Notes: a model not told the origin generated them from the letters alone. A DNA stretch of 64,000 nucleotides from an uncultured Kriegella sp. (GCF_963975415.1 NZ_CAXBGN010000011.1:67410-131409); one strand, 5' to 3'. Counted from the stretch's first letter, positions 3,233 to 34,694 are shown. Numbers and translations are program-made.

Positions 3233-3285
3233 CTTCTGTTTCGTTCAAAAGCTGTAAATTATGAATTGAAAGTCTACCACATATC

Positions 3286-17720: not shown

Positions 17721-19230
17721 AAATGCATATCGGGCGTTTTTGTTGCTTTCCTTTCTCGGGGTCAACATGCTAATTCTATTCGGAATCGGCTCTGCATGGT
17801 CTTATTTAAATACAGGAGCGGATCGTTCTACAATGCTGCACCTCGAAAGTCAATTAAACGAAACTTATCTACCTAAAGTGATATGGTCGGATACGCTAGG
17901 CGAAGGACGTCCATTAGAGAAGCAGACGCTTACAAAAATAGAAAAAGACTATAAACGTGCTTGGTATGTACGCAACCTGGCGTACAGAAATCAAAATGAC
18001 TACGGTCTTGACGATTATTATACAGACAGTGCCTTGATAAAATTTAAAAGGATTTTAGACTTGAACAAAGCCTCTGGCGTCAAAATAAAATCGACAACTA
18101 TTTCACACAACCCAGATTTGGAATTCTACAGTGCCGATGGCCAACTGGTGGTTTTCAAAGACAATAATGTAGCATCATACAGTCAAATCTATCGTAATGA
18201 CAGCCTTTTCCTTGAGCATAAAAGCACTGCAAATTACAGAGTCATCATGCTGCTCGAGGATGGTTTTTGGCGAATACGCCATCTGCAGGAAATTCCATCG
18301 GTATTACAAGACGGTATTGCCGAAAATGACAGCAACAAACTACCGATCGATTTTACCAAAATACGTGGCGTAAACTATTATCCGCAGAAAAACCCATGGG
18401 ATATGTTCGGTGAAAATTTTGATAGCCTGGTGGTTCGTAAAGATTTTGAAAGAATTCGTAAAATGGGTTTGAATATGGTGCGTATTTTCGTACCGTATGA
18501 GAATTTTGGGAAAAATATCATAGACCAGAACAAACTTAAACAATTAAAAAATGTGATGAATATTGCATTGGAAACAGATCTTAAGGTGATGGTCACCTTA
18601 TTCGATTTTTATGGAAATTATGATATTGACGATTGGACGCTAACTCATAGACACGCCGAAATTGTTGTAAATTCTTTGAAGAACCATAAAGCTCTTTTGG
18701 CTTGGGATGTAAAGAACGAGCCGGATCTAGACTTTGATTCAAGAGGGTTTACCACGGTAACCGCTTGGTTAAAAGAAATGATTGCGCAAATCAAGAGTTG
18801 GGACCCCGAACATGATGTCACCATAGGTTGGTCATCAACCGAAGCGGCAACCAATCTTACAGAAGAAGTAGATTTGGTTTCTTTTCATTATTACAAAAAA
18901 CCGGAAGATTTTGTCAAAGCATACCATCAACTACAAGATAAAGTAAACAACAAGCCGTTTATGTTGCAAGAATATGGATTATCTTCCTATAGCGGCGTTT
19001 GGAACGCCTTTAGTGGATCTGAAGAAAAGCAGGCTGCGTATTATAAGCAGATGCAAGAGTATATCTCTCAAGAAAATCTACCTTTCGTATTCTGGACCCT
19101 ATATGATTTCAATGAAGTACCCACTTCGGTAGTAGGCCGATTACCTTGGCGTAAAACACCTCAAAGACATTATGGCTGTATTAATGAGGAAGGAAATCCA
19201 AAGCCTTCTTACCAGTTTCTGAAGCAATAA
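17704..19230 (+). CDS. Membrane-anchored clan GH-A (GH5-like) glycoside hydrolase
   Basis: 508 aa with an N-terminal TM anchor. TIM-barrel signatures are present: acid/base motif WDVKNEPD and a nucleophile-type motif FMLQEYG. It overlaps the upstream gene by 17 nt. Confidence 0.7.
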   Translation: MATKNRNAYRAFLLLSFLGVNMLILFGIGSAWSYLNTGADRSTMLHLESQLNETYLPKVIWSDTLGEGRPLEKQTLTKIEKDYKRAWYVRNLAYRNQNDYGLDDYYTDSALIKFKRILDLNKASGVKIKSTTISHNPDLEFYSADGQLVVFKDNNVASYSQIYRNDSLFLEHKSTANYRVIMLLEDGFWRIRHLQEIPSVLQDGIAENDSNKLPIDFTKIRGVNYYPQKNPWDMFGENFDSLVVRKDFERIRKMGLNMVRIFVPYENFGKNIIDQNKLKQLKNVMNIALETDLKVMVTLFDFYGNYDIDDWTLTHRHAEIVVNSLKNHKALLAWDVKNEPDLDFDSRGFTTVTAWLKEMIAQIKSWDPEHDVTIGWSSTEAATNLTEEVDLVSFHYYKKPEDFVKAYHQLQDKVNNKPFMLQEYGLSSYSGVWNAFSGSEEKQAAYYKQMQEYISQENLPFVFWTLYDFNEVPTSVVGRLPWRKTPQRHYGCINEEGNPKPSYQFLKQ

Positions 19231-19301: not shown

Positions 19302-20540
19302 TTACACGTCTACAACCGAATCTTCAGTCTTTGTATGCGTGATACTTTTTAAATCGAAATTTGAGTTCTTAAGTTGTATGGCTTTAAAACAATCGATGTA
19401 CATTTTCGTTATAGCCGACATGGGTAATGAACAGGCCGCCTTGTAATTAGCCTTCGCCAACTCCGTGCGATACGATTCATTAGTCAATATACTTTGTATC
19501 GCATCTGCCAATGAATCAGCTTTATCGGCTTCAAAAAACTCTCCCCTATACCCTTCGTCTTCTATCAAAGAAGCCAAATCGCCTAAGTTGGGCAGCACCA
19601 CCGCCTTACCATAACTACCGGCTTGGTGCAACACCCCAGAGCTACCTGTAGTCGAGGTATACGGAAAAACTACGACAGCACTTTCACCGAAAATTACAGG
19701 AACATCCTCTTCGGCAACATAACCTGTAAAACGTAACTGCTCTACTCCTGCATATTGCTTGGCTACGTTCTCCAAATAGCCTGGTGTATTTGGGCTATCG
19801 GTACCCGCAATGACAATTTCGATATTTTCATCTGTACGTTTCCGTATTTTTTCTACCGCTTCAATCAATACCTCTACCTTTTTATAAGTACCAAACTTAC
19901 CAAAAGCCATTACCTGTTTCGCGCCTTTGGGCAATTGGTAATTCGGTTCTGGTGGTATCTCAAAAGACCCGTGGGGAATCTGAACCACGTTCTTGGCTTT
20001 GTATTTTTTCTCTAGAATTCCAACATACTTGGTTATGGTTACAGCCACAAGATCTGAAGCCAAAACAAAACGTGTCAAGGTAGATCCGATAAAACCGTAG
20101 ATTTTCTGTAACAATTTATTCTTAGTGAACCCTGCACTTTCCAAGTCAACTGTCTCCAATATATTATGCAACAATGAGATACAAGGAATACCTTTAAGTT
20201 TACATATGAAGGGCATAAGAAGACCCAAGGCAGCCGGCACCTTTTTATCCCCAAATTTTAAGAATTGTAAGTTGAATAAAACAGCATCGGGCTTGGTGCG
20301 GTTCAAGGCTCTATTAATATCCAATATATTTTTGTAGCTATTGAAGCTCCAGCTTTCGGCTACGGTTATTTTACAACCCTCTTCTTCAAAAGAAATGTCT
20401 TTTTCTCCTTCCGTTCGGTCGGTAATCAAAATAATCTCGTCTACATCGGATTGAAGTCTAAAGTGTTTTACGAGATGGTATGCATACTCCGTAAGGGTAA
20501 TTTTACTTGGCGGATATGCCGTTACAATTGCTAATTTCAT
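19302..20540 (-). CDS. GT4-family (GT-B fold) glycosyltransferase
   Basis: 412 aa. The C-terminal half shows the typical GT1/GT4 pattern (FGKFGTYKK..., FTGYV..EDVP, VVVFPY..TTGSSGVLHQA..YGKAVV). Confidence 0.8.
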   Translation of the reverse strand: MKLAIVTAYPPSKITLTEYAYHLVKHFRLQSDVDEIILITDRTEGEKDISFEEEGCKITVAESWSFNSYKNILDINRALNRTKPDAVLFNLQFLKFGDKKVPAALGLLMPFICKLKGIPCISLLHNILETVDLESAGFTKNKLLQKIYGFIGSTLTRFVLASDLVAVTITKYVGILEKKYKAKNVVQIPHGSFEIPPEPNYQLPKGAKQVMAFGKFGTYKKVEVLIEAVEKIRKRTDENIEIVIAGTDSPNTPGYLENVAKQYAGVEQLRFTGYVAEEDVPVIFGESAVVVFPYTSTTGSSGVLHQAGSYGKAVVLPNLGDLASLIEDEGYRGEFFEADKADSLADAIQSILTNESYRTELAKANYKAACSLPMSAITKMYIDCFKAIQLKNSNFDLKSITHTKTEDSVVDV

Positions 20541-20551: not shown

Positions 20552-21829
20552 TTATAAGTTTGTTTGATTATCCGTTTGAAGTTCTATATGGTTGGGCCTA
20601 TTGTTCTTATAAATAAAATACCCCAACTGCACAGCCAATAAAATGGCCATTGCCAGAATTTGTACGAGAACTACCTGTTCAAGACTGTCATGATAAATGG
20701 CTATCAAAGCCACTTGGGAAATACCCAAAATTCCTGATAGAATTACTGGACCATAATGGTCTAGGGAAAGATAGTAGTAGGCAAAAATGTTTGAAATGGC
20801 AAAAAGTGAGGTTGCCAAGGCGTATTTCCAAAGTAACCCTGCGATACTTAAATATTCCTCTCCGAACATCAACTGAACGATAAGCTCTGGAAACATCCAA
20901 CACGCAAGTACGATACAGGTTGATAGCAAGCCAATAATAAAAACATACTTAAACAAGACCGGAGCCGTCGACAAACCATCTTTCTTACGTTGCACCACGG
21001 TGGGCAGTAGTATCATAACGAACATCCAGGCAACAAAATATACCACCCTGCCTATCAAGGCAAGTGAGGCATACAAACCAGCAGTGGTCGCATCGAAATA
21101 ATGCTTCACCATTAAAATATCACTGTTGTTAATAATAATCTGGGTGCCTTCATAACATGCCGTAAGAATGATGAACATCGATACATTTTTGGCATTTTCA
21201 GGTGTTAAACGCACTGATTTTTCAAAACTGAAGTTTTTAATATCGGTCGGAATCATGCCAAACAAAAACGATATCAAAATACCAGAAGCGACCAAAGTGG
21301 TCGCATCAAACGGAAGCACCATCACAAAAAACAAAGTAAGCAAGAGCCTACTCCACATTTCGGTTTGGTAACTGGTTGAAAGTTTAATAAACTCCATATT
21401 GCCCTGGTAAATACCCCGGTTTACGCTCATTAAAAAATACAATGGAACCCCTACGGCAAATACAATAAACATTGAAGAAGTTTCCGTTTGAAATAATTGT
21501 TGCAAGTCTTTTGCAAAGAACAGCATCAAAACCATTGCTATTAAACCAATGATGAGCGACCCTTTATATAACTTAAACCGAAACCGAGACCACTGCCCTC
21601 CCTCCAACAACACAGCAAATTTTGCGGAGGCCAGTTGAAAAGTCATACCAACAAAAGACAGCACTAGTAATAAAGTAACGAGCAATGCGGCTTCAGCAAA
21701 AACAGCCGGCCCCAAAATTCTTCCCAGTAAAAGATTATAAATATAATTGCCCCCATTTACCAAGAGCACGCTAAACATGAATATTTGTTCGGGAGAAATT
21801 TTTCGCAATGCCAATCGATATACGGTCAT
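20552..21829 (-). CDS. MOP/PST-superfamily polysaccharide transporter (Wzx/PelG-like)
   Basis: 425 aa with about 12 predicted TM helices. It lies 11 nt upstream of the GT4 gene on the same strand. Confidence 0.6.
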   Translation of the reverse strand: MTVYRLALRKISPEQIFMFSVLLVNGGNYIYNLLLGRILGPAVFAEAALLVTLLLVLSFVGMTFQLASAKFAVLLEGGQWSRFRFKLYKGSLIIGLIAMVLMLFFAKDLQQLFQTETSSMFIVFAVGVPLYFLMSVNRGIYQGNMEFIKLSTSYQTEMWSRLLLTLFFVMVLPFDATTLVASGILISFLFGMIPTDIKNFSFEKSVRLTPENAKNVSMFIILTACYEGTQIIINNSDILMVKHYFDATTAGLYASLALIGRVVYFVAWMFVMILLPTVVQRKKDGLSTAPVLFKYVFIIGLLSTCIVLACWMFPELIVQLMFGEEYLSIAGLLWKYALATSLFAISNIFAYYYLSLDHYGPVILSGILGISQVALIAIYHDSLEQVVLVQILAMAILLAVQLGYFIYKNNRPNHIELQTDNQTNL

Positions 21830-22230: not shown

Positions 22231-24291
22231 ATGTTTCGATATTTTATTTTAATTTTTTTATTGTTTTTTTCGCTTCTTTCAAGTGCTCAAGATGACCTCT
22301 CTGCTGGCTTTGAACTTTTGGAAACAGGGAAATTCGAACAGGCAGAAACCTTCTTCGAAAACTATTTGAAAACAAAGCCAGATAATAAGACCGCCCAATT
22401 GTGTTATGCGAGAGCAGTGGGCTTAAGCGGGGAACCGCAGAAAGCCACCGGGCTTTTTGCTAATTTGTTAAATGATTACCCTGATGATTTTGAAGTACAA
22501 ATCAATTATAACGAGTCTTACCTATGGGCCAAAGAATACGAAAAGGCAAAACCATTATATCAAGAGATGGTACGCTCTTATCCTGATAAATTTGGAGCAC
22601 TATTAGGCTATGCCAATACACTCAGTAATTTAAAGGAATATAAGCAAGCCTTGACTTGGATAGAAAAGGCCATTGCCCTTGAACCTAATAACAAAAGCGC
22701 CAAAGTTTCCAGAAAATACATGAAGTTAGGTTACGCCAATCAATTCGTGAGCAATCAAAATTATCGAAAGGGCGAAGTTTTGCTTCAGGAAATTTTCACT
22801 GACTTTCCTGAAGACAAAGATGCTTTATTAAATCTTGCAAACCTGTACTTAATCACCAAAAATGCTAGTAAAGCCAAAGCAACGTACGGTCGCTATGCAC
22901 TGACCCCCAAAGATTCGGTTACTGCCTTAAATGGGATTGCTTTGGCAGCACATATTGATGAAAATGACAAGGAAGCCCTTAAAGTTGCTACTCTTTCTAA
23001 AAACCGGGTATCCCAATTCAAAGATAGTATACTGACCGAGCGCACGTATGACCGCTATATTCAAGCTTTGATATGGAATAGGAAATATGGAAAAGCAAAA
23101 GCGCAAATTGATAGTCTGTCAAAACTATACCCAAATAAAAATTGGCTTTTTGCCCTAAAGGCAACTTTCGGTCTTTATACGGGAAATCCCAAATACAGCA
23201 TCAAAAATTACAACGCAATTCTTAAAAATGATAGTACCTCGTTCGACGGAAATCTGGGTAGTGCCAACGCATATTTTGCTTCTGACCGTATAATACCTGC
23301 TTACAAAGCGGCCTATAAAACCTTGAAGATTTATAAAAACCAAAAAGATGCTAACGGCTTTATTGAAAAACTAAACGTTCAATTCACCCCAGGCATAGAA
23401 GAACATGCCGCCTATACTTTTGACAATGGCAATAATATAGCTCTCTTTACCAACACTAGTGTCGATGTTCCTTTATCAACCAAATTTAGAACCACGCTTT
23501 CGTATTTATACCGTACTACAAAAAATACGGTTACGCTCAACAAGGCGAACTCTCATGTAATCGTTGCCGGAATGCAGTATAAATTATTTCCTAAGACCAC
23601 TTTGAAAACGGTTCTGGGCCTAAACAATTCCCGCTTTATGGCAGATGCTTACACCCAACCCGTCTTAGAAGCCAAACTGGCTTTACAGCCATTTAAACTT
23701 CAAAACCTAGAAGTTGGCTATCAACGTGAGGTACAAAATTTCAATGCAGACCTTATCGAACGTGAAATCGTGATGAACCATTACGGACTGAACTACAATC
23801 TAGGCACAAACTTTAACCTGGGTTGGTATACGCAAATGATGTACACCCAACAAAGTGATGCTAATATTCGAAACCTTCTTTTTACTTCGTTATACTACAA
23901 TTTACTACGCAAACCAGCCCTTAAAATGGGGCTTAATTATCAGTACATCTCCTTTGCGGACCAATTACCTACCATTTACTTTAGTCCTGAAAAATATCAA
24001 GCTGTGGAGATATTTGCAGATATTCGCGGAAAAATTTCAAAGAATACCAATTATATGGCAAGTGCCGCTACTGGTTTCCAACAAGTAGAGGAAGACCCAA
24101 ATACTACAATTTTCAGAGCCGAAGCAAAATTACAGCATCAATTTTCAAAACGTCTCAGCGGCAATTTATATGGCAAGTATAGTAATATCGCTTCCGCTAC
24201 TGCAGCAGGTTTTGAATTCACCGAAATTGGAATAAAGTTAAAATGGTTGTTCACTAAAAGACCATTGTTCTTCCATAAAATAAAGCAATAG
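22231..24291 (+). CDS. TPR-repeat protein with C-terminal outer-membrane beta-barrel (PelB/PgaA/BcsC-like export scaffold)
   Basis: 686 aa with a signal peptide (LLSSAQD). About 380 aa of TPR-like helical repeats are followed by about 300 aa of alternating beta-strand pattern rich in Y/N/G. Confidence 0.65.
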   Translation: MFRYFILIFLLFFSLLSSAQDDLSAGFELLETGKFEQAETFFENYLKTKPDNKTAQLCYARAVGLSGEPQKATGLFANLLNDYPDDFEVQINYNESYLWAKEYEKAKPLYQEMVRSYPDKFGALLGYANTLSNLKEYKQALTWIEKAIALEPNNKSAKVSRKYMKLGYANQFVSNQNYRKGEVLLQEIFTDFPEDKDALLNLANLYLITKNASKAKATYGRYALTPKDSVTALNGIALAAHIDENDKEALKVATLSKNRVSQFKDSILTERTYDRYIQALIWNRKYGKAKAQIDSLSKLYPNKNWLFALKATFGLYTGNPKYSIKNYNAILKNDSTSFDGNLGSANAYFASDRIIPAYKAAYKTLKIYKNQKDANGFIEKLNVQFTPGIEEHAAYTFDNGNNIALFTNTSVDVPLSTKFRTTLSYLYRTTKNTVTLNKANSHVIVAGMQYKLFPKTTLKTVLGLNNSRFMADAYTQPVLEAKLALQPFKLQNLEVGYQREVQNFNADLIEREIVMNHYGLNYNLGTNFNLGWYTQMMYTQQSDANIRNLLFTSLYYNLLRKPALKMGLNYQYISFADQLPTIYFSPEKYQAVEIFADIRGKISKNTNYMASAATGFQQVEEDPNTTIFRAEAKLQHQFSKRLSGNLYGKYSNIASATAAGFEFTEIGIKLKWLFTKRPLFFHKIKQ

Positions 24292-24486: not shown

Positions 24487-25197
24487 CTATAACAGGTTTA
24501 ACCTTCGCATCAATTCGGGCCTACTATTACGGCTGATAGGAACAACATTTTTTTCTATTAAAACGCTGTTATCTTCAATATCTATTATCTTGGTGAAGTT
24601 TATTATATACGACCGATGAATCTGTAGAAATGATTTTTCGGGTAACTTTTGCTTTATGTTTTTTAGGGTCGTATGAACGTGATATTGCTGCTTTTCCGTT
24701 AGAATATCAATATAGTCGCCATTTACCTTTATCAAGAGTACTTCTTCAAACTTTAATTTTATCAAACGCCTATCGATGTTGATGTAAAAATAATCTTCAG
24801 CACCGAAACCTTCATGTTCCCCTCCCTCTTTTTTTGCAGGTGTCACCAATGCACTTTTTATTTTTCGAATCGATTTTTCAAAACGCTCAAAATTTATAGG
24901 TTTCACCAAATAGTCTACTATTGATTCATATTCATAGGATTCAATGGCAAAATTAGTGTCAGAGGTAATCAAGACTACCTTGGGAGAATCTTTTAAAGTT
25001 CGTACAAAATCAACTCCACTAAATCCTGGCATGTGAATATCTAAAAACACCACATCGACGGTAGATTGATTTAAAAACTTTATGGCATCGATGGCATTGT
25101 CAAATTGGGCTACTACCTCTATATCTGAAACTTTAGAAGAAAATCTTGCCACTATCGCTCTTGCGGCTTTCTCATCATCTACGATAATACAGGTCAT
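24487..25197 (-). CDS. LytTR-family response regulator (REC + LytTR DNA-binding domain)
   Basis: 236 aa with receiver (IIVDDE, VVFLDIHMPGFSG, KP) and LytTR signature (FLQIHRSYIINF). Confidence 0.9.
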   Translation of the reverse strand: MTCIIVDDEKAARAIVARFSSKVSDIEVVAQFDNAIDAIKFLNQSTVDVVFLDIHMPGFSGVDFVRTLKDSPKVVLITSDTNFAIESYEYESIVDYLVKPINFERFEKSIRKIKSALVTPAKKEGGEHEGFGAEDYFYINIDRRLIKLKFEEVLLIKVNGDYIDILTEKQQYHVHTTLKNIKQKLPEKSFLQIHRSYIINFTKIIDIEDNSVLIEKNVVPISRNSRPELMRRLNLL

Positions 25198-25199
25198 TG

Positions 25200-25520
25200 T
25201 TAAATAGTTTTTAGAAAATTATCTATGTTATCTAAAACATGACAGAAATCTTTGTGTCTTCCAAAATCTTCTGTTTTCAATTCTTCTTCAAAGACTACAG
25301 CCAATTTATAGGCTTCCTCCATGCTCAATATATTCAGTTTATGCTTTAATTTATGAACAATTTGCCAAGCTGCATAAAAATCTTTTTTTTCGATAGCTTC
25401 TTTGTAAATATTATGTTCGATCGGAAACTCTTGTTTCACTATGGAAATAAATTCCAACTCAAAATCGTAGTCGTCTCCTGCAAGTTCTTTAATATAATTT
25501 AAATTAGGCTTGTCCATCAC
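25200..25520 (-). CDS. Hpt (histidine phosphotransfer) domain protein
   Basis: 106 aa, helical, with an Hpt-like HKLKH motif (QIVHKLKHKLNILSM). It sits between a kinase and a response regulator and overlaps the kinase gene by 17 nt. Confidence 0.6.
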   Translation of the reverse strand: MMDKPNLNYIKELAGDDYDFELEFISIVKQEFPIEHNIYKEAIEKKDFYAAWQIVHKLKHKLNILSMEEAYKLAVVFEEELKTEDFGRHKDFCHVLDNIDNFLKTI

Positions 25521-26580
25521 AGTTTTTCTTTAATGTAAAATAAAAAGTTGTTCCCTTATTCTCTTCTGATTCGAGCCAAATATGGCCTTTATAAAGGGCT
25601 ATGATTTTTTTTGCCAAGGCGAGTCCAACTCCGGCAGATGTTGGATTATTCTCCAATTTTCGAAACATCTCGAATATACTTTTGTGGTGACGTTCAGGAA
25701 TTCCTTTTCCATTATCGGATATAGAAAATTTCCAAAATTGGTCATCATCTTCACTTTTAATTTTAATCAACCCTTCAGATAAGTGTTCGGTAGCGGCAAT
25801 GGCATTGGTCAACAAAATGGTAAAAAGTTGTTCGATCCAAATTCTTTCCAAGCAAATGGTTGGTAGATTATCGGACCATTGCAAATCTACATTATCGGGA
25901 ATGTTACTATTTTTTTTGATTTCACCAAGGAGCATTTTAATGTCAATGTTCTTCTTTTCCTCCATTTGAGCCCCAATGCTAGCGTGCTTAAGGATGCCAT
26001 TGATCAAATTATCCATTTTGGTCAAGTTCTCAGATATCAAAAGGCAATTATTCTTACTATCTTCCGACATTCTACTTTTTTCTTCCTCCAATATCCAACT
26101 CATCAACGCATTTACGTTTCTAACGGGTGATTTTAAATCATGGGATACCATTTGAACGTAATTGCTCAGCGACTCGTTCTTTACCTCCAAGCTTTTTAAG
26201 AGTACATTTTTTTCGGCCGTAATTTCACTAACCTCCTGGGCCAAATTGCTTAAATGACGTGCCAATTTTTCAGCATCGAAATTTTTGGTCTCACCATGTT
26301 TCAATTTGTCTCCGCCATCCAAATTCGAATTAAGGCTATTCATAGCCTGCTCAAGAGAAGCAAGAATCTGTTGTTGTCGCTCCGCTTCTTTTGTCAGTTT
26401 GGCGTTTGCCAGATAAAGTTCTTCAGAACTTATTGAGGTCGCACGCTGTATCATTGACAGCTTTTCATCAAAATCAATATACGAATTGTCGACGGCATTT
26501 AAGAACGCTTGAATATCAGGGCTTTCCTTCAAATGGTCGGGCAAGTATTTTCTTAACTGTCTATTGATCAGTGGGTGCAT
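25504..26580 (-). CDS. Cytoplasmic histidine kinase (coiled coil + HisKA + HATPase, no sensor domain)
   Basis: 358 aa with H-box MVSHDLKSPVR, N-box LLTNAI, G-boxes DNGKGI and GVGLALAKK. No TM segment. Confidence 0.9.
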   Translation of the reverse strand: MHPLINRQLRKYLPDHLKESPDIQAFLNAVDNSYIDFDEKLSMIQRATSISSEELYLANAKLTKEAERQQQILASLEQAMNSLNSNLDGGDKLKHGETKNFDAEKLARHLSNLAQEVSEITAEKNVLLKSLEVKNESLSNYVQMVSHDLKSPVRNVNALMSWILEEEKSRMSEDSKNNCLLISENLTKMDNLINGILKHASIGAQMEEKKNIDIKMLLGEIKKNSNIPDNVDLQWSDNLPTICLERIWIEQLFTILLTNAIAATEHLSEGLIKIKSEDDDQFWKFSISDNGKGIPERHHKSIFEMFRKLENNPTSAGVGLALAKKIIALYKGHIWLESEENKGTTFYFTLKKNCDGQA

Positions 26581-27716
26581 TATTCGCTAAGTAAAGTTAA
26601 TGTCATAGTCTGGTTATGCAATTTACACGCATCTTGATCGGCAAAAGGTGCCATCTCCCCATAGGAATAGAATCCGGTAACCACAGTATTTTCCCCAATT
26701 ACAGATAATACTTCGTCTACTTCTTCCTCCGTTCTTTGTCCCATGACCAGCTTACGGCCCACACAACTTATCAACAAGGCCAATTCAGGAGCGGCACTTC
26801 TTTTGTTCATCGCATATTTGGCCGCAGTTCGCGCACCATTGGCAATATCATCGACCGTAGACATCATTAATTGAACCTTCGAACCTTCAGGAATATCACC
26901 GGCAATAATCATGGTATTACTTTCTTCGTCTATATTTAAAATCGTTCTTACTATGGCAACCTCTTCATTCGGATGTCGTACACTCAAAGGAAACAACAAA
27001 GCCGATTGAGGCAATTCTTTTGCTTTTTCTCCAAGGTACTTCTTATAAAGGTCCAAAGCGGGTTTATCATCGAGTTCGTGCAGAATGTTATCCTGAGATT
27101 TCGTGATTACGCGTTCTGGCCCAAAAGGCATCCACCCACCGTAATTGGCACTTGTTATTTCTAGAGATTCGCCGTAAAATGCTATCGCCACTATCTCTCC
27201 CTCTTTAGGATTTTCGTTGTACGAAGAAAGTGTTTTTTCGAAACGGCCATCATCACCACATAAACCACCAGATAAACCGACACCCTTATTTTTATTTTGC
27301 TCAAACCCCGCAATCAAGGCACTGCCGTTAACCGTACTTCCTTCCGACACTAAAAATAAATGTTTTAAATTCTCTTGGGAAAAAGATTTCATCAAATGCT
27401 CGCCAAGATCTGTATCGTCATTGGCGAAATTGGCCACATTCTCCCTTTTAACCAAGAAACTGCCCTTCTCAAATTCAATTGCTGTTAACACCGCCGAATT
27501 TTCATAAACCGAATCTTCCATAATTTCACCCGAAGTCGAGCCAAAAACTATGTGTCCCGATGGAAACAAATCCCTTACCTCTTTATATATTCCTTCATCT
27601 TCCAAAATATATCTATTTCCAAAGACCAGAACTAGGGGATTGTTCAATACCTTATGTTCACCTTTAAACTTAAAGGGTACACCGGCGGCTACTTTTATTG
27701 CTTGTACTGTTTTCAT
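26580..27716 (-). CDS. FIST-domain sensory protein (FIST_N + FIST_C)
   Basis: 378 aa with a FIST-like sequence ending in the typical GFYSYGEMAP...HNQT block. Its stop overlaps the start of the kinase gene by 1 nt. Confidence 0.8.
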   Translation of the reverse strand: MKTVQAIKVAAGVPFKFKGEHKVLNNPLVLVFGNRYILEDEGIYKEVRDLFPSGHIVFGSTSGEIMEDSVYENSAVLTAIEFEKGSFLVKRENVANFANDDTDLGEHLMKSFSQENLKHLFLVSEGSTVNGSALIAGFEQNKNKGVGLSGGLCGDDGRFEKTLSSYNENPKEGEIVAIAFYGESLEITSANYGGWMPFGPERVITKSQDNILHELDDKPALDLYKKYLGEKAKELPQSALLFPLSVRHPNEEVAIVRTILNIDEESNTMIIAGDIPEGSKVQLMMSTVDDIANGARTAAKYAMNKRSAAPELALLISCVGRKLVMGQRTEEEVDEVLSVIGENTVVTGFYSYGEMAPFADQDACKLHNQTMTLTLLSE

Positions 27717-27723
27717 AAAACGC

Positions 27724-29724
27724 TTATTTTAACTGGCAAAATTCTTTCTTTAAGGTAAAGTGAAACTCTGTTCCTACGCCCACTTCACTATCTACCCAAA
27801 CCTCACCGCCATATCTATCTACAATCTTTTTTACAATGGAGAGCCCTATCCCGGTTGATCTTTCGTTATGGCCTACCGATTGAAAAATTTCGAATATTTT
27901 TTTGTGATACTCCTTTGGAATACCTACCCCGTTATCTTTAATGGTAAAGCACAAATGAGTTTTGTTTTCTTTGTAAAGAACTTCTACCAAGCCCTCTTTT
28001 TTATCTATATGCACCACAGCGTTACCCATAATATTTTGAAACAACTGGTGCATTTTAATATCATCTGCCAAAATGGTGGGCAACAATACCGGCACGGAAA
28101 GTTTTACATGTTCAGGAATAAAAATACTCTCTCCAACATCTGCCACTACGGTATTCAGGTCAACCTTTGAATTATCAAGTTCAGAACTATTTGCGGTAGA
28201 GTACTCTAAAATACCATGAATCAGTTTATCCATGGAGGCCACTTTCTCTTGCATTAATTGCAAGTTATGCTGTCCGGCCTCATCTAAAACATCTTTATAA
28301 TCTTCTTGAATCCAAGTGGCCAAAGCACTTATACTTCTTAATGGTGATTTCAAGTCATGGGAAACGATATGCGCATATTCTTGAAGGCCCTTATTGCTAT
28401 TTTCAAGCTCCTTTAATAGTCGCTCTTTTTGCTGTTCAAGAAGTTTCTGATTCGTGATATCAAGATGAATACCTATAGATCCAATAACATTCTTATCCAC
28501 ATCATATCTTGGGGCACCGCTTATCAACCAATATTTTTTGGCTCCCAATTTGTCCCTGACCTCAGCTTCATACGAATCTGATTTACCCTTGATCCTTGCT
28601 ATGTTCTTATCTGCAATTAGTGCTTGATCTTTGATATTCAGATAATTGGATGCTTTTTTACCTAAAAGCTCTTCCTCTCGAAACCCGCTCATGGTACAAA
28701 AACTACGGTTTACCAATTGAATAACATCATCGGTATCAACCTCAAGAAGACCAAGGTTCATGTTGGCTATTATACTGCTATATTTTTGGCGTTCAGCATT
28801 TAATCTTACTTCGGCCTCTCGCTCTTTGGTAATATCTTCGACCAGCACCAATTGATACTCGAGATTTCCTTTGGTGTCTTTGACGGCACTCACTATAGTT
28901 CTTGTTAAGACACAAGATCCATTTTTTCTAAACAACCGTTTGATCACCGTAAATTTATCACGTTTCCCCTCATTCATTTCAGAAGTCAGCCGGTCGTTGG
29001 CCTCAACATCCTCCGGAGCCGAAAAACTACTTACTTTAAGTTTTTTTAGCTCAATTTCACTATATCCTAAAAGGTCAATAAAGGTATTGTTAGCCTTTAC
29101 TATGGTATCGTCAACCCTCAAAACAATACCTAAGGGCGAATTCTGTACAATAGTATCCAATTGCTTGCGCTGCTCTGAAAGTAGTTGTTTAACCTCTATT
29201 TCTTGGGTAATATCGCGTATTATACCTTGTGCGGCAATGGGCCTTCTTTTTTTATCATAGATAAGGCTGCTGTTTACCTCTACCCATTTGGCATCGCCAT
29301 TCTTGGTCACTATTTTTGCCTTATACTTATTAATTTTTCCAAATTCGATCAATGCTTTCATCGATTGACCCGTATATAGGCTAAAATCTTTATGAATTAT
29401 CGATGTAAGGTTAAAACGTTCTTTGGTATGGTCATATCCTAAAAATTCCTTGGCGGAATTATTCATTTTTATAACCTCCCCTTTTAGGTCCATTACCACA
29501 TAAGGATCAATTATATTGATAAAATTACCGTCAAGTTCTGATGTCGTTTCACATAAAAGATCTTCTAGTTTACTTTTAGATTCCTTTAAATGCTCGGTAA
29601 CGTCATATAACTCTTTGGATTTTTCTTCCAATATTTTCTCTGCTTGATGACGTGCCTTTTTCTCGCGTTCCAACGCTCTCTTGAGTACTTGAACCTCTTT
29701 ACTTTCCATTGGTGACGATATCAA
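27724..29724 (-). CDS. Multi-PAS sensor histidine kinase (H-NOX-associated)
   Basis: 666 aa with an N-terminal coiled coil, about three PAS/PAC modules, H-box IVSHDLKSPLR and a HATPase domain (DNGVGI, GIGLSIVKK). It overlaps the H-NOX gene by 26 nt. Confidence 0.9.
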   Translation of the reverse strand: MISSPMESKEVQVLKRALEREKKARHQAEKILEEKSKELYDVTEHLKESKSKLEDLLCETTSELDGNFINIIDPYVVMDLKGEVIKMNNSAKEFLGYDHTKERFNLTSIIHKDFSLYTGQSMKALIEFGKINKYKAKIVTKNGDAKWVEVNSSLIYDKKRRPIAAQGIIRDITQEIEVKQLLSEQRKQLDTIVQNSPLGIVLRVDDTIVKANNTFIDLLGYSEIELKKLKVSSFSAPEDVEANDRLTSEMNEGKRDKFTVIKRLFRKNGSCVLTRTIVSAVKDTKGNLEYQLVLVEDITKEREAEVRLNAERQKYSSIIANMNLGLLEVDTDDVIQLVNRSFCTMSGFREEELLGKKASNYLNIKDQALIADKNIARIKGKSDSYEAEVRDKLGAKKYWLISGAPRYDVDKNVIGSIGIHLDITNQKLLEQQKERLLKELENSNKGLQEYAHIVSHDLKSPLRSISALATWIQEDYKDVLDEAGQHNLQLMQEKVASMDKLIHGILEYSTANSSELDNSKVDLNTVVADVGESIFIPEHVKLSVPVLLPTILADDIKMHQLFQNIMGNAVVHIDKKEGLVEVLYKENKTHLCFTIKDNGVGIPKEYHKKIFEIFQSVGHNERSTGIGLSIVKKIVDRYGGEVWVDSEVGVGTEFHFTLKKEFCQLK

Positions 29725-30244
29725 ATTTAACTTCCGTCCCGTCTTCTTTCAACAACTGGTAAGTGATTTGCGCCGTATCGTTAAAATGTTCGAAGGTTTT
29801 CTCCATTAAGCCATGGGCCAACCTATAGAGTCCTCTTGAGGAAGAATATATCATGGATAACGTAGTATCTGTTTTATCCAGAATTTTGAAGGTAGGAAGC
29901 TCAGCATCGGGGTAGAGCTTCTTAACATGTACATGTATATGGTCTTCAATTGAATAGAGCAGCGCAAGTGGAGACTTGTAACTTTTCACTACCTCAGGAT
30001 GAGATTTGGCCAACCCGTCAAATAAGTATAGGCCAAAAGCGTGGATAAGGTCACCCGCAGGAATATTCGTGACCCCACTTAGTTGTGTAATGAGACTCAC
30101 CATCTCATTAAAATCGTAGGTGCCTACAGAAGTATAGCTGCCCTCTGAAGGCAAATTTGAATTTTCAATTATAGCATCCAAGGTTTCCAAGCCAAACTTG
30201 GATTCTACCATTTCCAAAAATTCAGTAAAAACAATACCTTTCAT
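29699..30244 (-). CDS. H-NOX (heme-nitric oxide/oxygen binding) domain protein
   Basis: 181 aa with the MKGIVFTEFLEMVE N-terminus typical of HNOB. Candidate proximal His lies in EDHIHVHVKKLYP (H102/104/106). The YxSxR heme-propionate motif is Y133-S135-R137. Confidence 0.85.
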   Translation of the reverse strand: MKGIVFTEFLEMVESKFGLETLDAIIENSNLPSEGSYTSVGTYDFNEMVSLITQLSGVTNIPAGDLIHAFGLYLFDGLAKSHPEVVKSYKSPLALLYSIEDHIHVHVKKLYPDAELPTFKILDKTDTTLSMIYSSSRGLYRLAHGLMEKTFEHFNDTAQITYQLLKEDGTEVKFDIVTNGK

Positions 30245-30319
30245 AAAACTGATTTAGTTTTTAAAGGTAGGAAAAGTATGACTTTTACATAAAATTTTGT
30301 TGTGAAACGCCGTTTTTAG

Positions 30320-30721
30320 TTAGCCTTTAACCAACTGATTGATGTCCCAGTATTCCAAGACCTTATTTAACTTTGATTCGTAGTCTTCATATTTTAGGGG
30401 TTTTATAACATAACCAGCGATTCCAATTTGATAACATTTAAGTAAATCGGCCCTGTTTTCAGATGTGGTCAATATAATTGTAGGAAGGTATTTTAAAACA
30501 TCGTCGGCCTTAAGAATTTCTAAAAACTCTATACCGCTCATTCTAGGCATGTTTAAATCTAATAGAATAATATCAGGTGACTTTTCACCCGACCTCAATA
30601 TCTCGAGCGCCTCCTCACCGTTGTTCGCCTTTACAATATTATGTTTAAGTTGCAGCTTAGATAAGGTGCGTTGTAATTTCATGACTTCGATAGTATCGTC
30701 TTCAATTAAAAGAATGTCCAT
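30320..30721 (-). CDS. Stand-alone receiver-domain response regulator (CheY-like)
   Basis: 133 aa with LLIEDD, IILLDLNMPRMSG, LTTS and KP motifs. Confidence 0.9.
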   Translation of the reverse strand: MDILLIEDDTIEVMKLQRTLSKLQLKHNIVKANNGEEALEILRSGEKSPDIILLDLNMPRMSGIEFLEILKADDVLKYLPTIILTTSENRADLLKCYQIGIAGYVIKPLKYEDYESKLNKVLEYWDINQLVKG

Positions 30722-31081
30722 AGTTTTATTGTTTTTCGAATTATTAAAACAAATTTCCGTTTTTGTACTTTATTTGAGGGTTTCAACACGGGCGAATGGT
30801 AGATTGGTGTCGGTGAATGGTAATTTTATGTAGATTTAAAATTGAATATTTTTTCGTAAAGAAAGAAAAAACATACAAACCAACGAATGAAGTTTGTTCA
30901 TAAAATAGCAATCTCCCATTGAAACTAAAGGGCCGTTATTGTTTTTATAAAGTTTCAACAGCTCGTATGGTATTCACTGTGATTATTTCTAAGTCAAGCA
31001 TAATGTCCAATCTTAAAAACAGCCGTATTTGACCGTCAATACTTTATTATGTGAGATAAAGAACAACTAGCTATTCATTGT

Positions 31082-33178
31082 TTACTTCGAAAAAAATACA
31101 GCTTCCGGTACTTCTGCTTGTAAAAGAGAGGGGCCTTTCCATTGCAGATCAAATTTATGTTCTTTACCGGAATCGCTTTGGCTATAAATACGAATCGGAT
31201 GGTACCCTTCCTTTAATTTAATAGCCCCTTTCCTAACCGTTTCAGGCAAATATCCATAATCGGCATCAATCACACTGGCATCGTGAATGCGTATAAAAGC
31301 TTTGTTCGTAACGCTTAAGAAAAAAGTGTATATACCACTTCTCGGGATTCTAATGTATCCCTCAAAAAGGTATACATTTCCTTTCTTTGATTTGATCTGA
31401 TTCAGTGAAGGCCTTTTGGCAGTTCCGTGTTCTAGGGGAATCAAATCGTCAACACGGGCCAGCCAAGGAGCCTCACTTTCATATGCTTTCCAACGCAATC
31501 CCTTTTTTAATCCATTGACAGAGACGGCCGATACCCCTTCACCGTCATAAGGTCGTGCCGCGGCAGTATCGGGCACCCGTATTTGCAAGACACGTTCTTT
31601 CATTCGTTTTTGTAGTTCGGCCATGTTCGCATTACCAGCAAGATTCGTCGCCTGATGGGTATCGTCAATTACATTATAAAATTCAAAATCGTCATCTGCT
31701 TCTTGAATATTATAGCGTAATCCAACAATATCGCCTATGCGCATCATTTGCATCTGTTTTCTTAGCCTACCCCGGTTATTGGGTGCAAATTCATCATACT
31801 CGGGTGATTTTCGGCCTTGATTATATTCAACATAAACCAAACTTTCTTTTTGTTCTCCCTGTCCGCTTAAACTAGGCAATAACGATACCCCGTCACTATT
31901 CGCAGGTGCCGGGAGCCCTGCGGCATCTAAGAAGGTCGGAAGCCAATCGTAGGAAATGTTTGGCGAATCGACTACACTTCCGGCAGGAATTTGTGTCGGC
32001 CATCTTGCTATCAAAGGGGTTCGCTCCCCTCCTTCCAAAACATCTCTTTTGATACCATCAAAGGGGCCAAAACTGTTAAAGAAATTTGCTTTGTAGCGCT
32101 CTTTTGGTAAATAAGATTCAATAGACGGACCATTATCCGAATTAAAAATCACTAAGGTATTTTCATCAATACCTAAATCGCCTAACAATTGCAGAATATC
32201 TCCCACCTCATTATCGATACGTCTTGTGCTAGTAGCATACCGCTTGTATACGTCGGGCCACGCCACCTCGGGGGTTGAAGAATCATTATCATCATCGTAT
32301 GTAGCCATTGCATAATCTGGGTGTACCCAAGAGTCTACTACCCCTGATGCCGTATTGATCATATGGCCCGGGGTACCGGTCCACTGCAATCCTCCCTTGA
32401 GGCCACCTCCCTTAGGATAGGCCTGTGTCGGCAGCTCTAATACAGCATGGGGAGTATCGAAGGCCAAATACATAAAGAAAGGTTGCTTATCTTTATTCTG
32501 GCTCTGTTCTACAATCCATTTTTTGGCAACGGCTGTCCATAAATCTCCGGTATAGCACTTATCAAGGTCTTTACTTACCTCTGTCTTGTTTTCATATACC
32601 TCTTTTTGACCACGATAAACTCCTTCTTTGGGGTAGTGTTCGTGACCGTCTGAATGGCGCATATATCCGTAGTAATAGTCGAAACCCCTATTTAAGGGAT
32701 GTGCAGGCCATGAATCACCATTTTCAGACCATCGCTTCGAACCTTGAAGTCCCCATTTACCAATAGCGGCTGTCTTGTAGCCCGCCTTTTGTAAAACATT
32801 GCCAACGGTGTGGTTATCGGCCAATGCCTTATCGAATTGGTTGTCTCGAACATTGGCATGGCCCTGGCTCAATCCGGATAAAAAAGAAGATCTTGAAGGG
32901 GCGCAAACCGGTGCCGCAGTATAGTGATGGGTTAAAATTGCGCCCTCTGAAGCCATTTGATCAAGATTGGGAGTGAATACCCATGGTTCACTACGGTCAT
33001 TTCTCTTTTTCCTCTGATTTTGAAAAAATACGCCTACATCTCCATACCCCAAATCATCGGTGAGTATATAGATAATATTTGGCTTGCTCTTATCAGTAGC
33101 CTTTTTAGTCTGACTTTTGACCATCTGCTGGCTAAACAGCAACACTACGATACTAATAATGCCATATACTTTTCTCAT
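31082..33178 (-). CDS. Formylglycine-dependent sulfatase with C-terminal PA14-like domain
   Basis: 698 aa with a signal peptide. It carries the sulfatase signature CAPSRSSFLSG (C-x-P-x-R) and the metal-ligand block DDLGYGD. The C-terminal roughly 140 aa is PA14/GLEYA-like (GLRWKAYES...GIYTFFL...IRIHDASVIDAD...GYHPIRIY). Confidence 0.85.
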   Translation of the reverse strand: MRKVYGIISIVVLLFSQQMVKSQTKKATDKSKPNIIYILTDDLGYGDVGVFFQNQRKKRNDRSEPWVFTPNLDQMASEGAILTHHYTAAPVCAPSRSSFLSGLSQGHANVRDNQFDKALADNHTVGNVLQKAGYKTAAIGKWGLQGSKRWSENGDSWPAHPLNRGFDYYYGYMRHSDGHEHYPKEGVYRGQKEVYENKTEVSKDLDKCYTGDLWTAVAKKWIVEQSQNKDKQPFFMYLAFDTPHAVLELPTQAYPKGGGLKGGLQWTGTPGHMINTASGVVDSWVHPDYAMATYDDDNDSSTPEVAWPDVYKRYATSTRRIDNEVGDILQLLGDLGIDENTLVIFNSDNGPSIESYLPKERYKANFFNSFGPFDGIKRDVLEGGERTPLIARWPTQIPAGSVVDSPNISYDWLPTFLDAAGLPAPANSDGVSLLPSLSGQGEQKESLVYVEYNQGRKSPEYDEFAPNNRGRLRKQMQMMRIGDIVGLRYNIQEADDDFEFYNVIDDTHQATNLAGNANMAELQKRMKERVLQIRVPDTAAARPYDGEGVSAVSVNGLKKGLRWKAYESEAPWLARVDDLIPLEHGTAKRPSLNQIKSKKGNVYLFEGYIRIPRSGIYTFFLSVTNKAFIRIHDASVIDADYGYLPETVRKGAIKLKEGYHPIRIYSQSDSGKEHKFDLQWKGPSLLQAEVPEAVFFSK

Positions 33179-33263
33179 AATTCTATGGATGTTGTTTTAT
33201 CGATTTATCGCAATTAAGGAGAATCTCGTTAATTTCATATCGATATTATCTTAAATACTAGCT

Positions 33264-34529
33264 TCAATTCTTTTCATATGCCTGTCCATACCTTAATAAG
33301 CTTTCCAAATAATAGTAATCGGCATAATTTAAAGGAACATCGATTTCATTACCGTGAGGAATACTGCCTACACTATGCTTTAAAATAAAATCATTGTTCC
33401 CCCCTATTTTTGCGGTATATTCCTCAGAAGCCAAAGAATTTAGAATTTCATCGATTTGCGCCCTGTACGACTCTTTTGTAAAACTATCTAGTTCGATAAG
33501 AGCCGATACAATAATGGTGGCCGCGGAAACATCCCGTGGTTCGTCGGGAATTTTGTCGGCATTATAATCCCAATAAGGTATGGCATCGGCCGGTCTATTA
33601 TCATAAATATATTGGGCTATTTTCTTAGCCTGATCAAGATACTTCTCATCTTTAGTGTAGCGATAGCAGACCGTATAGCCATACAGGCCCCAGGCTTGGC
33701 CTCTAGCCCAAGCACTCTCATGGGCGAAACCTTGGGCCGTCTCTTTGTTTCTAACCTTTCCCGTTTCGGGGTCATAATCCACAACGTGATACGAAGAGTT
33801 GTCTTCCCTAAAGTGATGCTTCAAAGTCGTATTCGCATGCGTTATCGCTATTTCCTTGTATTTATCATCTCCGGTCAGTTCACTGACTTTAAATAAAAGC
33901 TCCAAATTCATCATGTTATCAATAATTACAGGAAACATCCAGTTTCTTTCAGATTGCCAACCCCTGTCCACATCCCAGCTCTTAATACATCCGACGTTGG
34001 GGTTAAATCTGGTAGACAAAGATTCGGCCGCCGTTATCATGACCGCCATAAAATCTGTGTTTTGAGTCAATTCATAGCCATTGCCGTATGAACAGTTGAA
34101 GACAAAACCCAAATCATGATTTGTAGTTAAGTTTTTATGTTGTTCGAACATCGCTTGAAAAGATGTTGCGGCACTCTTCCATTTTTCATCTTTAGTGTAT
34201 TTATACAAATACCATAGACTACCAGGGTAAAAACCTTCTGTCCAGTCGAATTTCAGATTCGTCCAATGCATTTCTCCCTCAGGATTGACAGTTCTCGGGA
34301 TTCTATTTTCTTCTGTGGCGAACGCCGTTTGAAGATCTAACTGTCGCAACGCACTAGACAATGCTTCGTCTACGTCTACACTTTTTTCAATGGCACTACT
34401 GGGCACCGCTTTGTCGGAAATCTTTTCGCTATTGTTTTTACAGGAGCTCAACAATACTATAAGAAGTAGAAAACACCTGATTTTTCCGAAATGACCCAAT
34501 TGTAACTTATAGACAAAATTTTCATTCAT
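33264..34529 (-). CDS. GH88-family unsaturated glucuronyl hydrolase, lipoprotein
   Basis: (alpha/alpha)6-type sequence with a GH88-like block (ARGQAWGLYGY, HDLGF). The start is placed at MNENF (34529), giving a lipoprotein signal (LLSSC). The track's start at 34598 is less likely. Confidence 0.75.
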   Translation of the reverse strand: MNENFVYKLQLGHFGKIRCFLLLIVLLSSCKNNSEKISDKAVPSSAIEKSVDVDEALSSALRQLDLQTAFATEENRIPRTVNPEGEMHWTNLKFDWTEGFYPGSLWYLYKYTKDEKWKSAATSFQAMFEQHKNLTTNHDLGFVFNCSYGNGYELTQNTDFMAVMITAAESLSTRFNPNVGCIKSWDVDRGWQSERNWMFPVIIDNMMNLELLFKVSELTGDDKYKEIAITHANTTLKHHFREDNSSYHVVDYDPETGKVRNKETAQGFAHESAWARGQAWGLYGYTVCYRYTKDEKYLDQAKKIAQYIYDNRPADAIPYWDYNADKIPDEPRDVSAATIIVSALIELDSFTKESYRAQIDEILNSLASEEYTAKIGGNNDFILKHSVGSIPHGNEIDVPLNYADYYYLESLLRYGQAYEKN

Positions 34530-34694
34530 AGCACGCTCAATTTTTTTATGAACCCACAAAATACAATTAAAGAAACAATTTGTGAATAATATACCCACTA
34601 CTTCCTTAGCCTAACATATATTAAATCGGTGCTAAAATAGCATCATTTCGCTATTGATTACCTTTGGGGTTGTACAAGACGCCTAAAATACACT

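Follow-up and report, generated by a model that had tools for sequence, protein, structure and literature searches.

A 64,000-nucleotide stretch of DNA from an uncultured Kriegella sp. (GCF_963975415.1, NZ_CAXBGN010000011.1:67410-131409), referred to below as the window, contains a compact seven-gene operon in which an H-NOX protein and a FIST protein are encoded together with two histidine kinases, a stand-alone receiver, an Hpt protein and a LytTR-type response regulator. We consider it probable, with moderate confidence, that these genes specify a cytoplasmic four-step phosphorelay with several inputs, in which the H-NOX and FIST proteins would serve as sensors and the LytTR regulator would provide the output. 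The evidence consists of gene content, conserved residues, the modeled fold of the Hpt protein, synteny across a bacterial family, a DNA operator, and the joint loss of this operator and the LytTR gene. The window comes from a Tara Oceans scaffold of 182 kb, whose encoded proteins carry routine, domain-level names in RefSeq.

Seven packed open reading frames (ORFs) on one strand had been described in the initial annotation, and all of them are present on the minus strand at positions 24487 to 30721. In the direction of transcription, they encode a stand-alone receiver of 133 amino acids (aa) with D55 as the proposed phospho-acceptor (REC1, 30320..30721; Pfam Response_reg, 7e-23), an H-NOX protein of 181 aa (29699..30244; Pfam HNOB, 5e-39, full length), a cytoplasmic, non-hybrid kinase with three PAS domains followed by HisKA and HATPase_c (PAS kinase, 27724..29724), a FIST protein of 378 aa (26580..27716; FIST_N, 8e-41, and FIST_C, 3e-36), a sensor-less kinase of 358 aa (HK2, 25504..26580; HATPase_c, 9e-23, and a weak HisKA match), an Hpt protein (25200..25520 from a GTG start, or 25200..25517 from an ATG start, the latter giving 105 aa) and a REC-LytTR regulator of 236 aa with phospho-acceptor D53 (24487..25197; Response_reg and LytTR, 9e-19 each). 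Pfam supports six of the seven products, the exception being Hpt, for which no match is obtained at E ≤ 0.01. Overlaps of 26, 1 and 17 nucleotides (nt) between the genes for H-NOX and PAS kinase, FIST and HK2, and HK2 and Hpt, respectively, had also been reported and hold when the longest ORFs are taken, whereas the ATG starts of the public gene calls (RefSeq lists a 661-aa PAS kinase and a 105-aa Hpt) yield 11, 1 and 14 nt. The PAS kinase may start at an ATG at 29709, overlapping hnoX by 11 nt, or at a TTG at 29724, overlapping it by 26 nt. The remaining gaps are 75 nt between REC1 and H-NOX, 7 nt between PAS kinase and FIST, and 2 nt between Hpt and LytTR. A hydrophobic-segment scan predicted no membrane segment in any of the seven proteins, which fits the sensing of a membrane-permeant gas, and Pfam identified no enzyme domain of cyclic diguanylate (c-di-GMP) metabolism (EAL, GGDEF, HD-GYP) among them. 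Folding of the 3' intergenic region revealed no canonical terminator (z -1.9), and a scan for sigma-70 promoters and intrinsic terminators gave counts not above those of shuffled sequence, the sigma-70 consensus being unsuited to Bacteroidota.

This arrangement recurs throughout the Flavobacteriaceae. An H-NOX scan with one genome per species returned more than 550 relatives, of which the best 80 loci were examined with 10-kb flanks; these belong to Flavobacteriaceae or to unclassified metagenome bins and cover Ulvibacterium, Maribacter, Zobellia, Cellulophaga, Muriicola, Arenibacter, Flagellimonas and others. A receiver gene is found ~478 nt upstream of hnoX in 80/80 loci, and the PAS kinase gene follows. 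Seventy-one loci, from other Flavobacteriaceae species, are long enough to be judged complete, and in every one of them the gene order is REC1-hnoX-PAS kinase-(FIST-HK2)-Hpt-LytTR, apart from genes that are optional or lost: 41 loci have the seven-gene form, 26 a five-gene form without exactly FIST and HK2, one has HK2 without FIST, and three (Pseudozobellia thermophila, Pseudozobellia sp. and Euzebyella marina) have no LytTR gene. FIST is accordingly present in 44 of the 71 (the 41 seven-gene and the three LytTR-less loci). The latter three lack both the LytTR gene and the operator described below, keep REC1, H-NOX, both kinases, FIST and Hpt, and have the exopolysaccharide (EPS) locus right after Hpt. 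As the sulfatase gene upstream is not conserved, we place the beginning of the operon at the receiver gene. Since the same order recurs in all complete loci, the gene arrangement is not a product of chance, and we therefore conclude that it represents a family-wide Flavobacteriaceae operon.

The H-NOX protein covers positions 1-162 of the 163 in the HNOB profile, scoring 134.3 bits against a cut-off of 25.5. The residues singled out in the initial annotation, a Y133/S135/R137 motif and a histidine cluster at 102-106, are present, and Y133, S135, R137, H102 and H104 are invariant in 81 sequences (the window protein and 80 orthologs, the basis of all residue counts out of 81), H106 being conserved in 80. 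Alignment to H103 of the Shewanella oneidensis (So), H104 of the Kordia algicida (Ka) and H102 of the Tt H-NOX proteins points to H104 as the proximal histidine; the hinge residue Gly71 as well as P112 and P117 are likewise invariant. A Trp9/Asn74/Tyr140 triad stabilizes O2 in the Caldanaerobacter H-NOX (PMC7356049). The Tt triad positions W9/N74/Y140 correspond to F9/L74/L142 in the window protein, again invariant in 81 sequences; the Tt sequence, entered by hand for this mapping, agrees with the published numbering at every landmark residue. Because the O2-binding triad is absent, the protein is, judged by its residues, a member of the NO-selective class, predicted to bind heme and nitric oxide (NO). 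Redox sensing through a thiol/zinc mechanism, by which the heme-free Vibrio cholerae (Vc) H-NOX detects oxidants (PMC8738867), was ruled out for the window protein, which contains no cysteine at all.

In a PDB sequence search, the nearest solved structure is 6BDE/6BDD (E ~1e-59, aligned residues 1-178; identity ~60%, as estimated from the alignment), followed by 6OCV (a 190-aa 'Heme NO binding domain protein') and then by the Shewanella oneidensis H-NOX. According to published papers, 6BDD and 6BDE are the Kordia algicida H-NOX, the deposited molecule name being misleading, and this protein is treated as an NO-type H-NOX of a facultative anaerobe (PMC7356049). Like the window protein it is flavobacterial and stand-alone and has the same proximal His104, but it differs at hinge position 71, where native Ala (6BDD; Gly in the 6BDE variant) contrasts with Gly71 in the window protein and its 80 orthologs. 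The initial annotation had called H-NOX signaling in Bacteroidota essentially uncharacterized. This went too far with regard to the protein, since the Kordia H-NOX structure is solved, and it stands with regard to the pathway: the literature found on the Kordia protein covers structure and dynamics only, and our search turned up no pathway paper.

The two kinases have paralogous transmitter modules. Orthologs of the PAS kinase measure ~530, ~660 or ~790 aa, corresponding to two to four PAS domains, and HK2 has ~135 N-terminal residues in which Pfam recognizes no domain. Their transmitters are 38% identical, and both carry R/A/L at DHp His+7/+11/+12, positions that in EnvZ-type kinases hold much of the partner specificity. 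R/A/L is found in 74/77 PAS kinases and in 29/48 HK2 orthologs, with conservative T/S variants elsewhere. On the basis of these residues, the two proteins appear as non-hybrid paralogs with identical partner-specificity positions. Because FIST and HK2 behave as a cassette inserted between the PAS kinase and Hpt genes, both kinases must share the downstream parts of the system.

A stand-alone FIST_N-FIST_C protein whose gene overlaps that of a sensor-less kinase by 1 nt has the architecture of NosP. Translational coupling of such a protein to a sensor-less kinase is the NosP/NahK (NosK, VpsS) arrangement, so FIST is by this analogy probably a second, NosP-like sensor input. On the NCBIfam NosP equivalog NF041558, the FIST protein scores 51.2 bits (E 9.7e-14; residues 28-355 on profile positions 26-352 of 368) against a cut-off of 450. 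C153, C318, C364 and H367 are invariant and H119 is conserved in 46/47 orthologs, making these residues candidate ligands. FIST genes near hnoX in one sequence cluster without the 3-Cys motif have been mentioned in passing by a review (PMC8738867). FIST is thus not a neutral extra in the operon, and together with HK2 it constitutes an optional cassette. Overlap of their genes, together with precedent, suggests that H-NOX acts with the PAS kinase and FIST with HK2.

The Hpt protein is the least obvious member of the operon. It scores 15.7 bits with Pfam Hpt, matched at a relaxed cut-off, against a gathering threshold of 24.6, yet the same Pfam model matches 27/30 Hpt orthologs at E ≤ 1 (best 4.4e-6), some of which carry a precomputed PF01627 assignment, and RefSeq names the product 'Hpt domain-containing protein'. 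With a profile of the Hpt family, the best matches in the PDB are Hpt domains, those of BarA, of RcsD and of a Shewanella hybrid kinase, and H56 falls on the phospho-histidine, with H56-K57-L58-K59 aligning to IHKLHG of BarA. H56 (GTG-start numbering) is invariant in 74 orthologs. An AlphaFold model computed with 35 homologs is a helical bundle with a mean predicted local distance difference test score (pLDDT) of 95.6; its fold matches 3myf (TM 0.75), BarA 3iqt (0.70), Pseudomonas aeruginosa HptB 7c1i (0.66), plant AHPs and Ypd1, and nearly all of the top 30 fold matches are Hpt proteins, in keeping with an Hpt four-helix bundle that exposes the His of an H-x-x-K motif to solvent on its second long helix. 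A single-sequence PDB search with Hpt had returned spurious helical matches only and was superseded by the profile and fold searches. With the support of the model, the Hpt identity is confirmed despite the Pfam miss.

The receivers retain the residues required of phospho-acceptors. D8/D9 of REC1 are conserved in 80/81 and D55/T85/K107 in 81/81 sequences, whereas the corresponding counts for REC-LytTR are 68/69 for D53, 68/69 for T78 and 69/69 for K99; REC-LytTR also matches the NCBIfam BtsR model (3.6e-38), under its cut-off. All four modules of a His-Asp-His-Asp relay, namely kinase, receiver, Hpt and terminal regulator, are hence present with conserved phospho-sites. As to their order, the kinases have no fused receiver, an Hpt needs a receiver as donor, and REC1 is present in every locus, and we therefore favor transfer from the kinase or kinases to REC1, on to Hpt and from there to REC-LytTR, an order inferred from gene presence and absence only. 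REC1 is placed next to the kinases, and not LytTR, because three genomes lost LytTR yet keep REC1 and Hpt. Of the outputs that the initial annotation had named, the LytTR DNA-binding regulator does end the operon; REC1, proposed there as an orphan output, is less likely an output than the phosphodonor of Hpt. Its conservation makes a Spo0F-like relay intermediate the more likely role. A further Hpt acceptor may plausibly be REC::GT2, a receiver-containing enzyme of the neighboring EPS locus. It is a reasonable candidate because the LytTR-less genomes keep REC1 and Hpt and have the EPS locus directly after Hpt.

Upstream of REC1, alignment of the orthologous regions revealed a paired direct repeat, CCATTCGTCTACAC, with a 21-bp period and resemblance to the AlgR box. 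Its consensus is TTTCCATTCGTCTACACTTA; the copies of every pair keep a spacing of exactly 21 bp and are located near -93 and -72 relative to the REC1 ATG. A weight matrix detects the pair in 76/80 loci; it is missing from the three LytTR-less loci and from one further contig, which begins within the region. In the window, the pair TTACCATTCACCGACACCAA / TCTACCATTCGCCCGTGTTGA occupies 41 bp at 30783..30823 on the minus strand and is the proposed REC-LytTR operator; its score is 27.8, while 30 shuffled versions of the window reached at most 7.1, and no other pair occurs in the 64 kb. The 9-bp repeat core CCATTCGTC is identical in 8/9 positions to the AlgR box CCGTTCGTC (PMC4064291), and a pair of direct repeats close to the promoter is how AgrA sites are known to be laid out (PMC4227749). 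The strongest single argument for assigning the repeat to LytTR is that site and regulator were lost together, and the pair is thus probably a LytTR operator, with autoregulation as the predicted consequence. A candidate Bacteroidota -7 element, GAAATTTG (TAnnTTTG-like; 30750..30757, minus strand), lies 28 nt before the REC1 start, and most of the orthologous regions have a TTTG-containing element about as far from the start. If this element is real, the repeats would be centered near -45 and -65, positions typical of an activator.

A second conserved element is located inside the operon. The REC1-hnoX spacer, which measures 74-80 nt in 70/79 loci, contains the bipartite motif TTTCACAACA-N23-TTTYYTAC (30267..30307, minus strand), found once in the window against 0.05 matches expected. 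The exact motif is present in 53/81 loci, once per locus and in the spacer only, including in a LytTR-less genome, and it ends ~22-25 nt before the H-NOX start codon. Its second half resembles the Bacteroidota -7 box with C replacing G, and the motif may be an internal promoter for basal expression of the sensors and kinases or the operator of another factor. A reading as a hairpin or RNA element was set aside, as the halves are, by eye, not complementary.

The operon adjoins a polysaccharide locus, as had been claimed: the convergent gene for a TPR and beta-barrel protein resembling export porins (22231..24291, plus strand; weak NCBIfam matches of PgaA/BcsC type) lies 195 nt downstream, and REC::GT2 (12000..13142, minus strand; Pfam), expected 11 kb away, is found at a distance of 11.3 kb. 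Between these two genes, the EPS-type locus comprises genes for an 8-segment membrane protein (13399..16491, plus), a 409-aa protein (16491..17720, plus), a GH5-like protein (17704..19230, plus), a GT4-type glycosyltransferase (19302..20540, minus) and a 425-aa, 9-segment membrane protein (20552..21829, minus), the last two genes being 11 nt apart. A convergent TPR/beta-barrel gene is located at most 10 kb downstream in 55/71 loci and is followed by orthologs of the 425-aa membrane protein and the GT4 enzyme; in six loci, the gene directly after the TPR/beta-barrel gene is REC::GT2. A physical and evolutionary link between operon and polysaccharide locus is thus supported.

In the relatives, the operator probably extends this link to regulation. 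Among the 80 loci we found 84 extra pairs with a score of at least 10, all in the operon orientation, against no pair above 7.1 in ~3.8 Mb of shuffled sequence. Of the pairs scoring at least 15, 14 lie 59-264 nt upstream of the ortholog of the 20552..21829 gene and ten lie 11-91 nt upstream of the GT4 gene. By these sites, direct control of the adjacent polysaccharide locus by the LytTR regulator is very probable in relatives. Pairs also precede small STAS-like genes heading an EPS operon in five loci, and genes for secreted proteins of 830-957 aa with a C-terminus of type IX secretion system (T9SS) type in four, both labels having been assigned by eye. In several Zobellia loci, a pair stands right after the lytTR stop codon, toward the convergent TPR-barrel gene, with no ORF of at least 100 aa behind it.

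Taken together, these data suggest a working model. H-NOX would bind heme via H104, sense NO and not O2, and modulate autophosphorylation of the PAS kinase, whose gene comes next and overlaps hnoX, while FIST, as an optional accessory sensor in the manner of NosP, would modulate HK2, whose gene likewise follows and overlaps that of its sensor. Both kinases would phosphorylate D55 of REC1, from which the phosphoryl group would pass to H56 of Hpt and on to D53 of REC-LytTR. The phosphorylated regulator would then bind the paired repeats, which lie ~45 and ~65 bp ahead of the transcription start predicted for the operon, resulting in autoregulation, and in many relatives it would bind identical operators before EPS and secreted-protein genes; Hpt may have a second acceptor in REC::GT2 of the EPS locus. 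The sign of regulation can be anticipated by analogy: NO-bound H-NOX usually inhibits its partner kinase, and NO would accordingly be expected to lower LytTR phosphorylation. A more far-reaching version, in which H-NOX and a divergent NosP-like FIST are both heme NO sensors feeding a c-di-GMP-independent, Spo0-type relay with a dual EPS output, via LytTR transcription and REC::GT2 phosphorylation, is a tentative proposal that we regard as rather doubtful in its entirety.

Several points weigh against the phosphorelay model. Each of its steps is predicted from sequence and model comparison. The window Hpt falls below the Pfam threshold and has His60 in place of the usual Gly after HxxK, and phosphotransfer could also proceed directly from the kinases to LytTR. 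With respect to the second input, the FIST protein fails the NosP equivalog cut-off and is probably NosP-like in architecture and mode only, not a NosP; PDB searches with its sequence and with a 22-sequence profile yielded no FIST or NosP structure with which to compare the heme pocket, and FIST domains of other proteins may respond to heme or to different ligands, the chemistry of FIST-FIST_C being described in a review as unsettled between NO and heme (PMC8846402). At the operator, the proximal half-site is weak in the window (5.3 vs 22.5), and the co-loss of LytTR and operator may be one event, a single ancestral deletion, as Pseudozobellia and Euzebyella are related. The conserved spacer motif, possibly a further regulatory element, has no place in this model. 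Finally, the EPS regions of the window (21830-22230, 13143-13398, 11314-11999, 24292-24486 and the 3' end of 20552..21829) contain no operator pair at spacings of 20-22 bp, and homologs of the STAS-like and T9SS-type target genes of relatives are absent from the window. Direct LytTR control of the adjacent EPS locus in this genome was therefore rejected as unsupported. Only autoregulation is visible here, and an EPS link would need unseen sites, targets elsewhere in the genome, or REC::GT2.

The same genes could be wired differently. In a branched scheme, the kinases would phosphorylate REC-LytTR directly, REC1 would be a sink or a CheY-like output, and Hpt would shuttle phosphate between REC1 and further receivers, for instance to REC::GT2. 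CheY is indeed the best NCBIfam match of REC1 (69 bits, far under the cut-off), and single-domain receivers often serve as phosphate sinks; moreover, the EPS locus includes REC::GT2 as a conserved member, and genomes that keep Hpt without LytTR must provide Hpt with another partner. However, an Hpt is phosphorylated by a receiver, and no receiver other than REC1 is always co-present; REC1 accompanies hnoX in 80/80 loci and Hpt in every complete locus. That LytTR could be lost while REC1 and Hpt were kept argues for REC1 as the primary partner of the kinases. These bacteria, in addition, glide and are not known to have a flagellar motor on which a CheY could act. We regard the branched scheme as unlikely, though it deserves consideration, and retain the linear relay through REC1 as the preferred order.

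Less probable still, in our view, is a redox or metabolic integrator that does not respond to NO, with H-NOX reporting O2, CO or redox state, FIST free heme, an amino acid or another ligand, and the PAS domains signals of their own. FIST-FIST_C proteins have been tied to heme sensing through CdpA (PMC8846402), the heme-free V. cholerae H-NOX senses oxidants (PMC8738867), the FIST protein does not reach the NosP equivalog cut-off, and the two to four PAS domains of the kinase have no assigned ligands. The H-NOX protein itself speaks against such a scheme, given its lack of the Trp/Asn/Tyr triad needed for stable O2 binding, the absence of any cysteine, which excludes the Vc-type switch, its invariant proximal His and YxSxR motif, and the treatment of its closest solved relative as an NO-type H-NOX. 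That the seven genes are merely adjacent and their EPS link coincidental would agree with the richness of Bacteroidota genomes in two-component genes and with the lack of operators at the EPS genes of the window. Order, orientation and spacer lengths are nevertheless conserved over 71 loci from many genera, start and stop codons overlap, the operator co-varies with LytTR, and operators are located upstream of EPS genes in relatives. Synteny effectively refutes this view, which we hold to be exceedingly improbable.

None of the modules of the proposed relay is new in kind, and kinases that feed an Hpt under the control of H-NOX or NosP are established in Vibrio and Pseudomonas. In Vibrio, the common Hpt protein LuxU is fed by cytosolic kinases that have no sensor of their own and share a cistron with H-NOX or NosP (PMC6769237). 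V. harveyi H-NOX/HqsK and V. cholerae NosP/VpsS thus resemble the present operon in having a sensor-less cytosolic kinase encoded together with a heme NO sensor, and LuxU/LuxO resembles it in that several kinases converge via one Hpt on a transcription factor for biofilm or polysaccharide genes (PMC6769237). The Vibrio kinases are, however, hybrids with a fused receiver, whereas here the kinases are non-hybrid and the receiver is a separate gene; H-NOX and NosP occur in different Vibrio species or loci, and here in one operon; the H-NOX partner kinase carries three PAS domains, unlike in Vibrio; and the Vibrio output consists of the sigma-54 activator LuxO and Qrr small RNAs in place of a LytTR regulator with its own predicted operator. 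Control of a partner kinase by an accessory heme sensor is also known from Shewanella oneidensis HnoX/HnoK, from NosP/NahK/NarR and from NosP/NosK/NosR (PMC8846402, PMC12570481), and the Burkholderia NosK has ~130 N-terminal residues without a recognizable sensor domain, as in HK2 (PMC12570481). The Shewanella and NosP systems act through c-di-GMP enzymes (receivers with EAL, GGDEF or HD-GYP domains), none of which is found among the seven proteins here.

The relay part finds its closest parallel in Bacillus subtilis sporulation, where the kinases KinA-E, of which KinA has three PAS domains, act via Spo0F and Spo0B on Spo0A. There, too, several non-hybrid kinases, soluble or membrane-bound, act through a single-domain receiver and a phosphotransferase on an autoregulating DNA-binding regulator; Spo0B is dimeric and DHp-like, in contrast to the monomeric four-helix-bundle Hpt modeled here, and the flavobacterial system differs further by its accessory heme-type sensor inputs and its LytTR output domain. 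On the output side, P. aeruginosa AlgZ/AlgR likewise combines a LytTR response regulator with EPS genes and a 9-bp core identical in 8/9 positions (PMC4064291). AlgR sites are often single, scattered and at variable distance, unlike the two repeats 21 bp apart at a fixed promoter-proximal position described here, a layout that is more AgrA-like, and the signaling upstream of AlgZ/AlgR is unrelated to this operon.

What is new is the combination: a separate receiver with non-hybrid kinases, both sensor types in one operon as core and optional cassette, a PAS-rich partner kinase, and a LytTR terminal regulator with a definable operator, an EPS-centered regulon in relatives and no c-di-GMP enzyme in the operon. 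Control of biofilms by NO is well studied in Proteobacteria, where it nearly always involves c-di-GMP enzymes or the Vibrio quorum-sensing relay, and our literature search found no NO-signaling pathway for Flavobacteriaceae. They are major colonizers of marine surfaces, particles and algae, settings that contain NO released by hosts as well as by denitrifiers. If the more far-reaching, dual-output version of the model is true, no earlier pathway from NO to matrix will have been defined in the phylum, and no earlier H-NOX pathway with a LytTR factor at its end. The locus offers a testable wiring proposal in which a pair of sensors and a pair of kinases are joined by a relay to a regulator that has a 41-bp predicted operator and a candidate regulon of EPS genes and, by labels given by eye, genes for STAS-like and T9SS-type secreted proteins. 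The operon is present in cultured, tractable genera (Zobellia, Maribacter, Cellulophaga), and its natural variants, with five or seven genes, without LytTR, or with and without operators at EPS genes, provide ready-made controls.

Several neighboring genes deserve mention. The product of 20552..21829 (minus strand) is named 'sugar isomerase' in RefSeq, but neither Pfam nor NCBIfam gives a match, and nine segments of the protein are hydrophobic; it resembles a polytopic protein of the EPS polymerase or flippase type, and the public name is probably wrong. The EPS locus is flanked by an ordinary polysaccharide-utilization context. On one side, SusC/SusD-like genes and one for an FG-GAP/ASPIC protein (67..6597, plus) adjoin the gene for a 1385-aa hybrid two-component regulator (7156..11313, minus) with a beta-propeller/Y_Y_Y sensor, a kinase, a receiver and an AraC-type helix-turn-helix; on the other, sulfatase and GH88 genes are located at 31082..34598. 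A 265-aa Tll0287-like/DUF3365 protein (46674..47471, minus; Pfam 2e-17) with a CLQCH c-type heme motif is encoded 16 kb from the operon. This family is also known as 'sCache_heme', and some of its members are periplasmic NO sensors (2026 preprint, PMC12889525), so that, going by its motif, a further heme protein near the operon is possible. Finally, a 1447-aa ORF (37660..42003, plus) represents an unusual fusion of an AcrB-type RND pump (residues 1-1037) to an OEP/TolC-like factor (1271-1446), and is followed by a gene for an HlyD-type membrane-fusion protein (42014..43147, plus).

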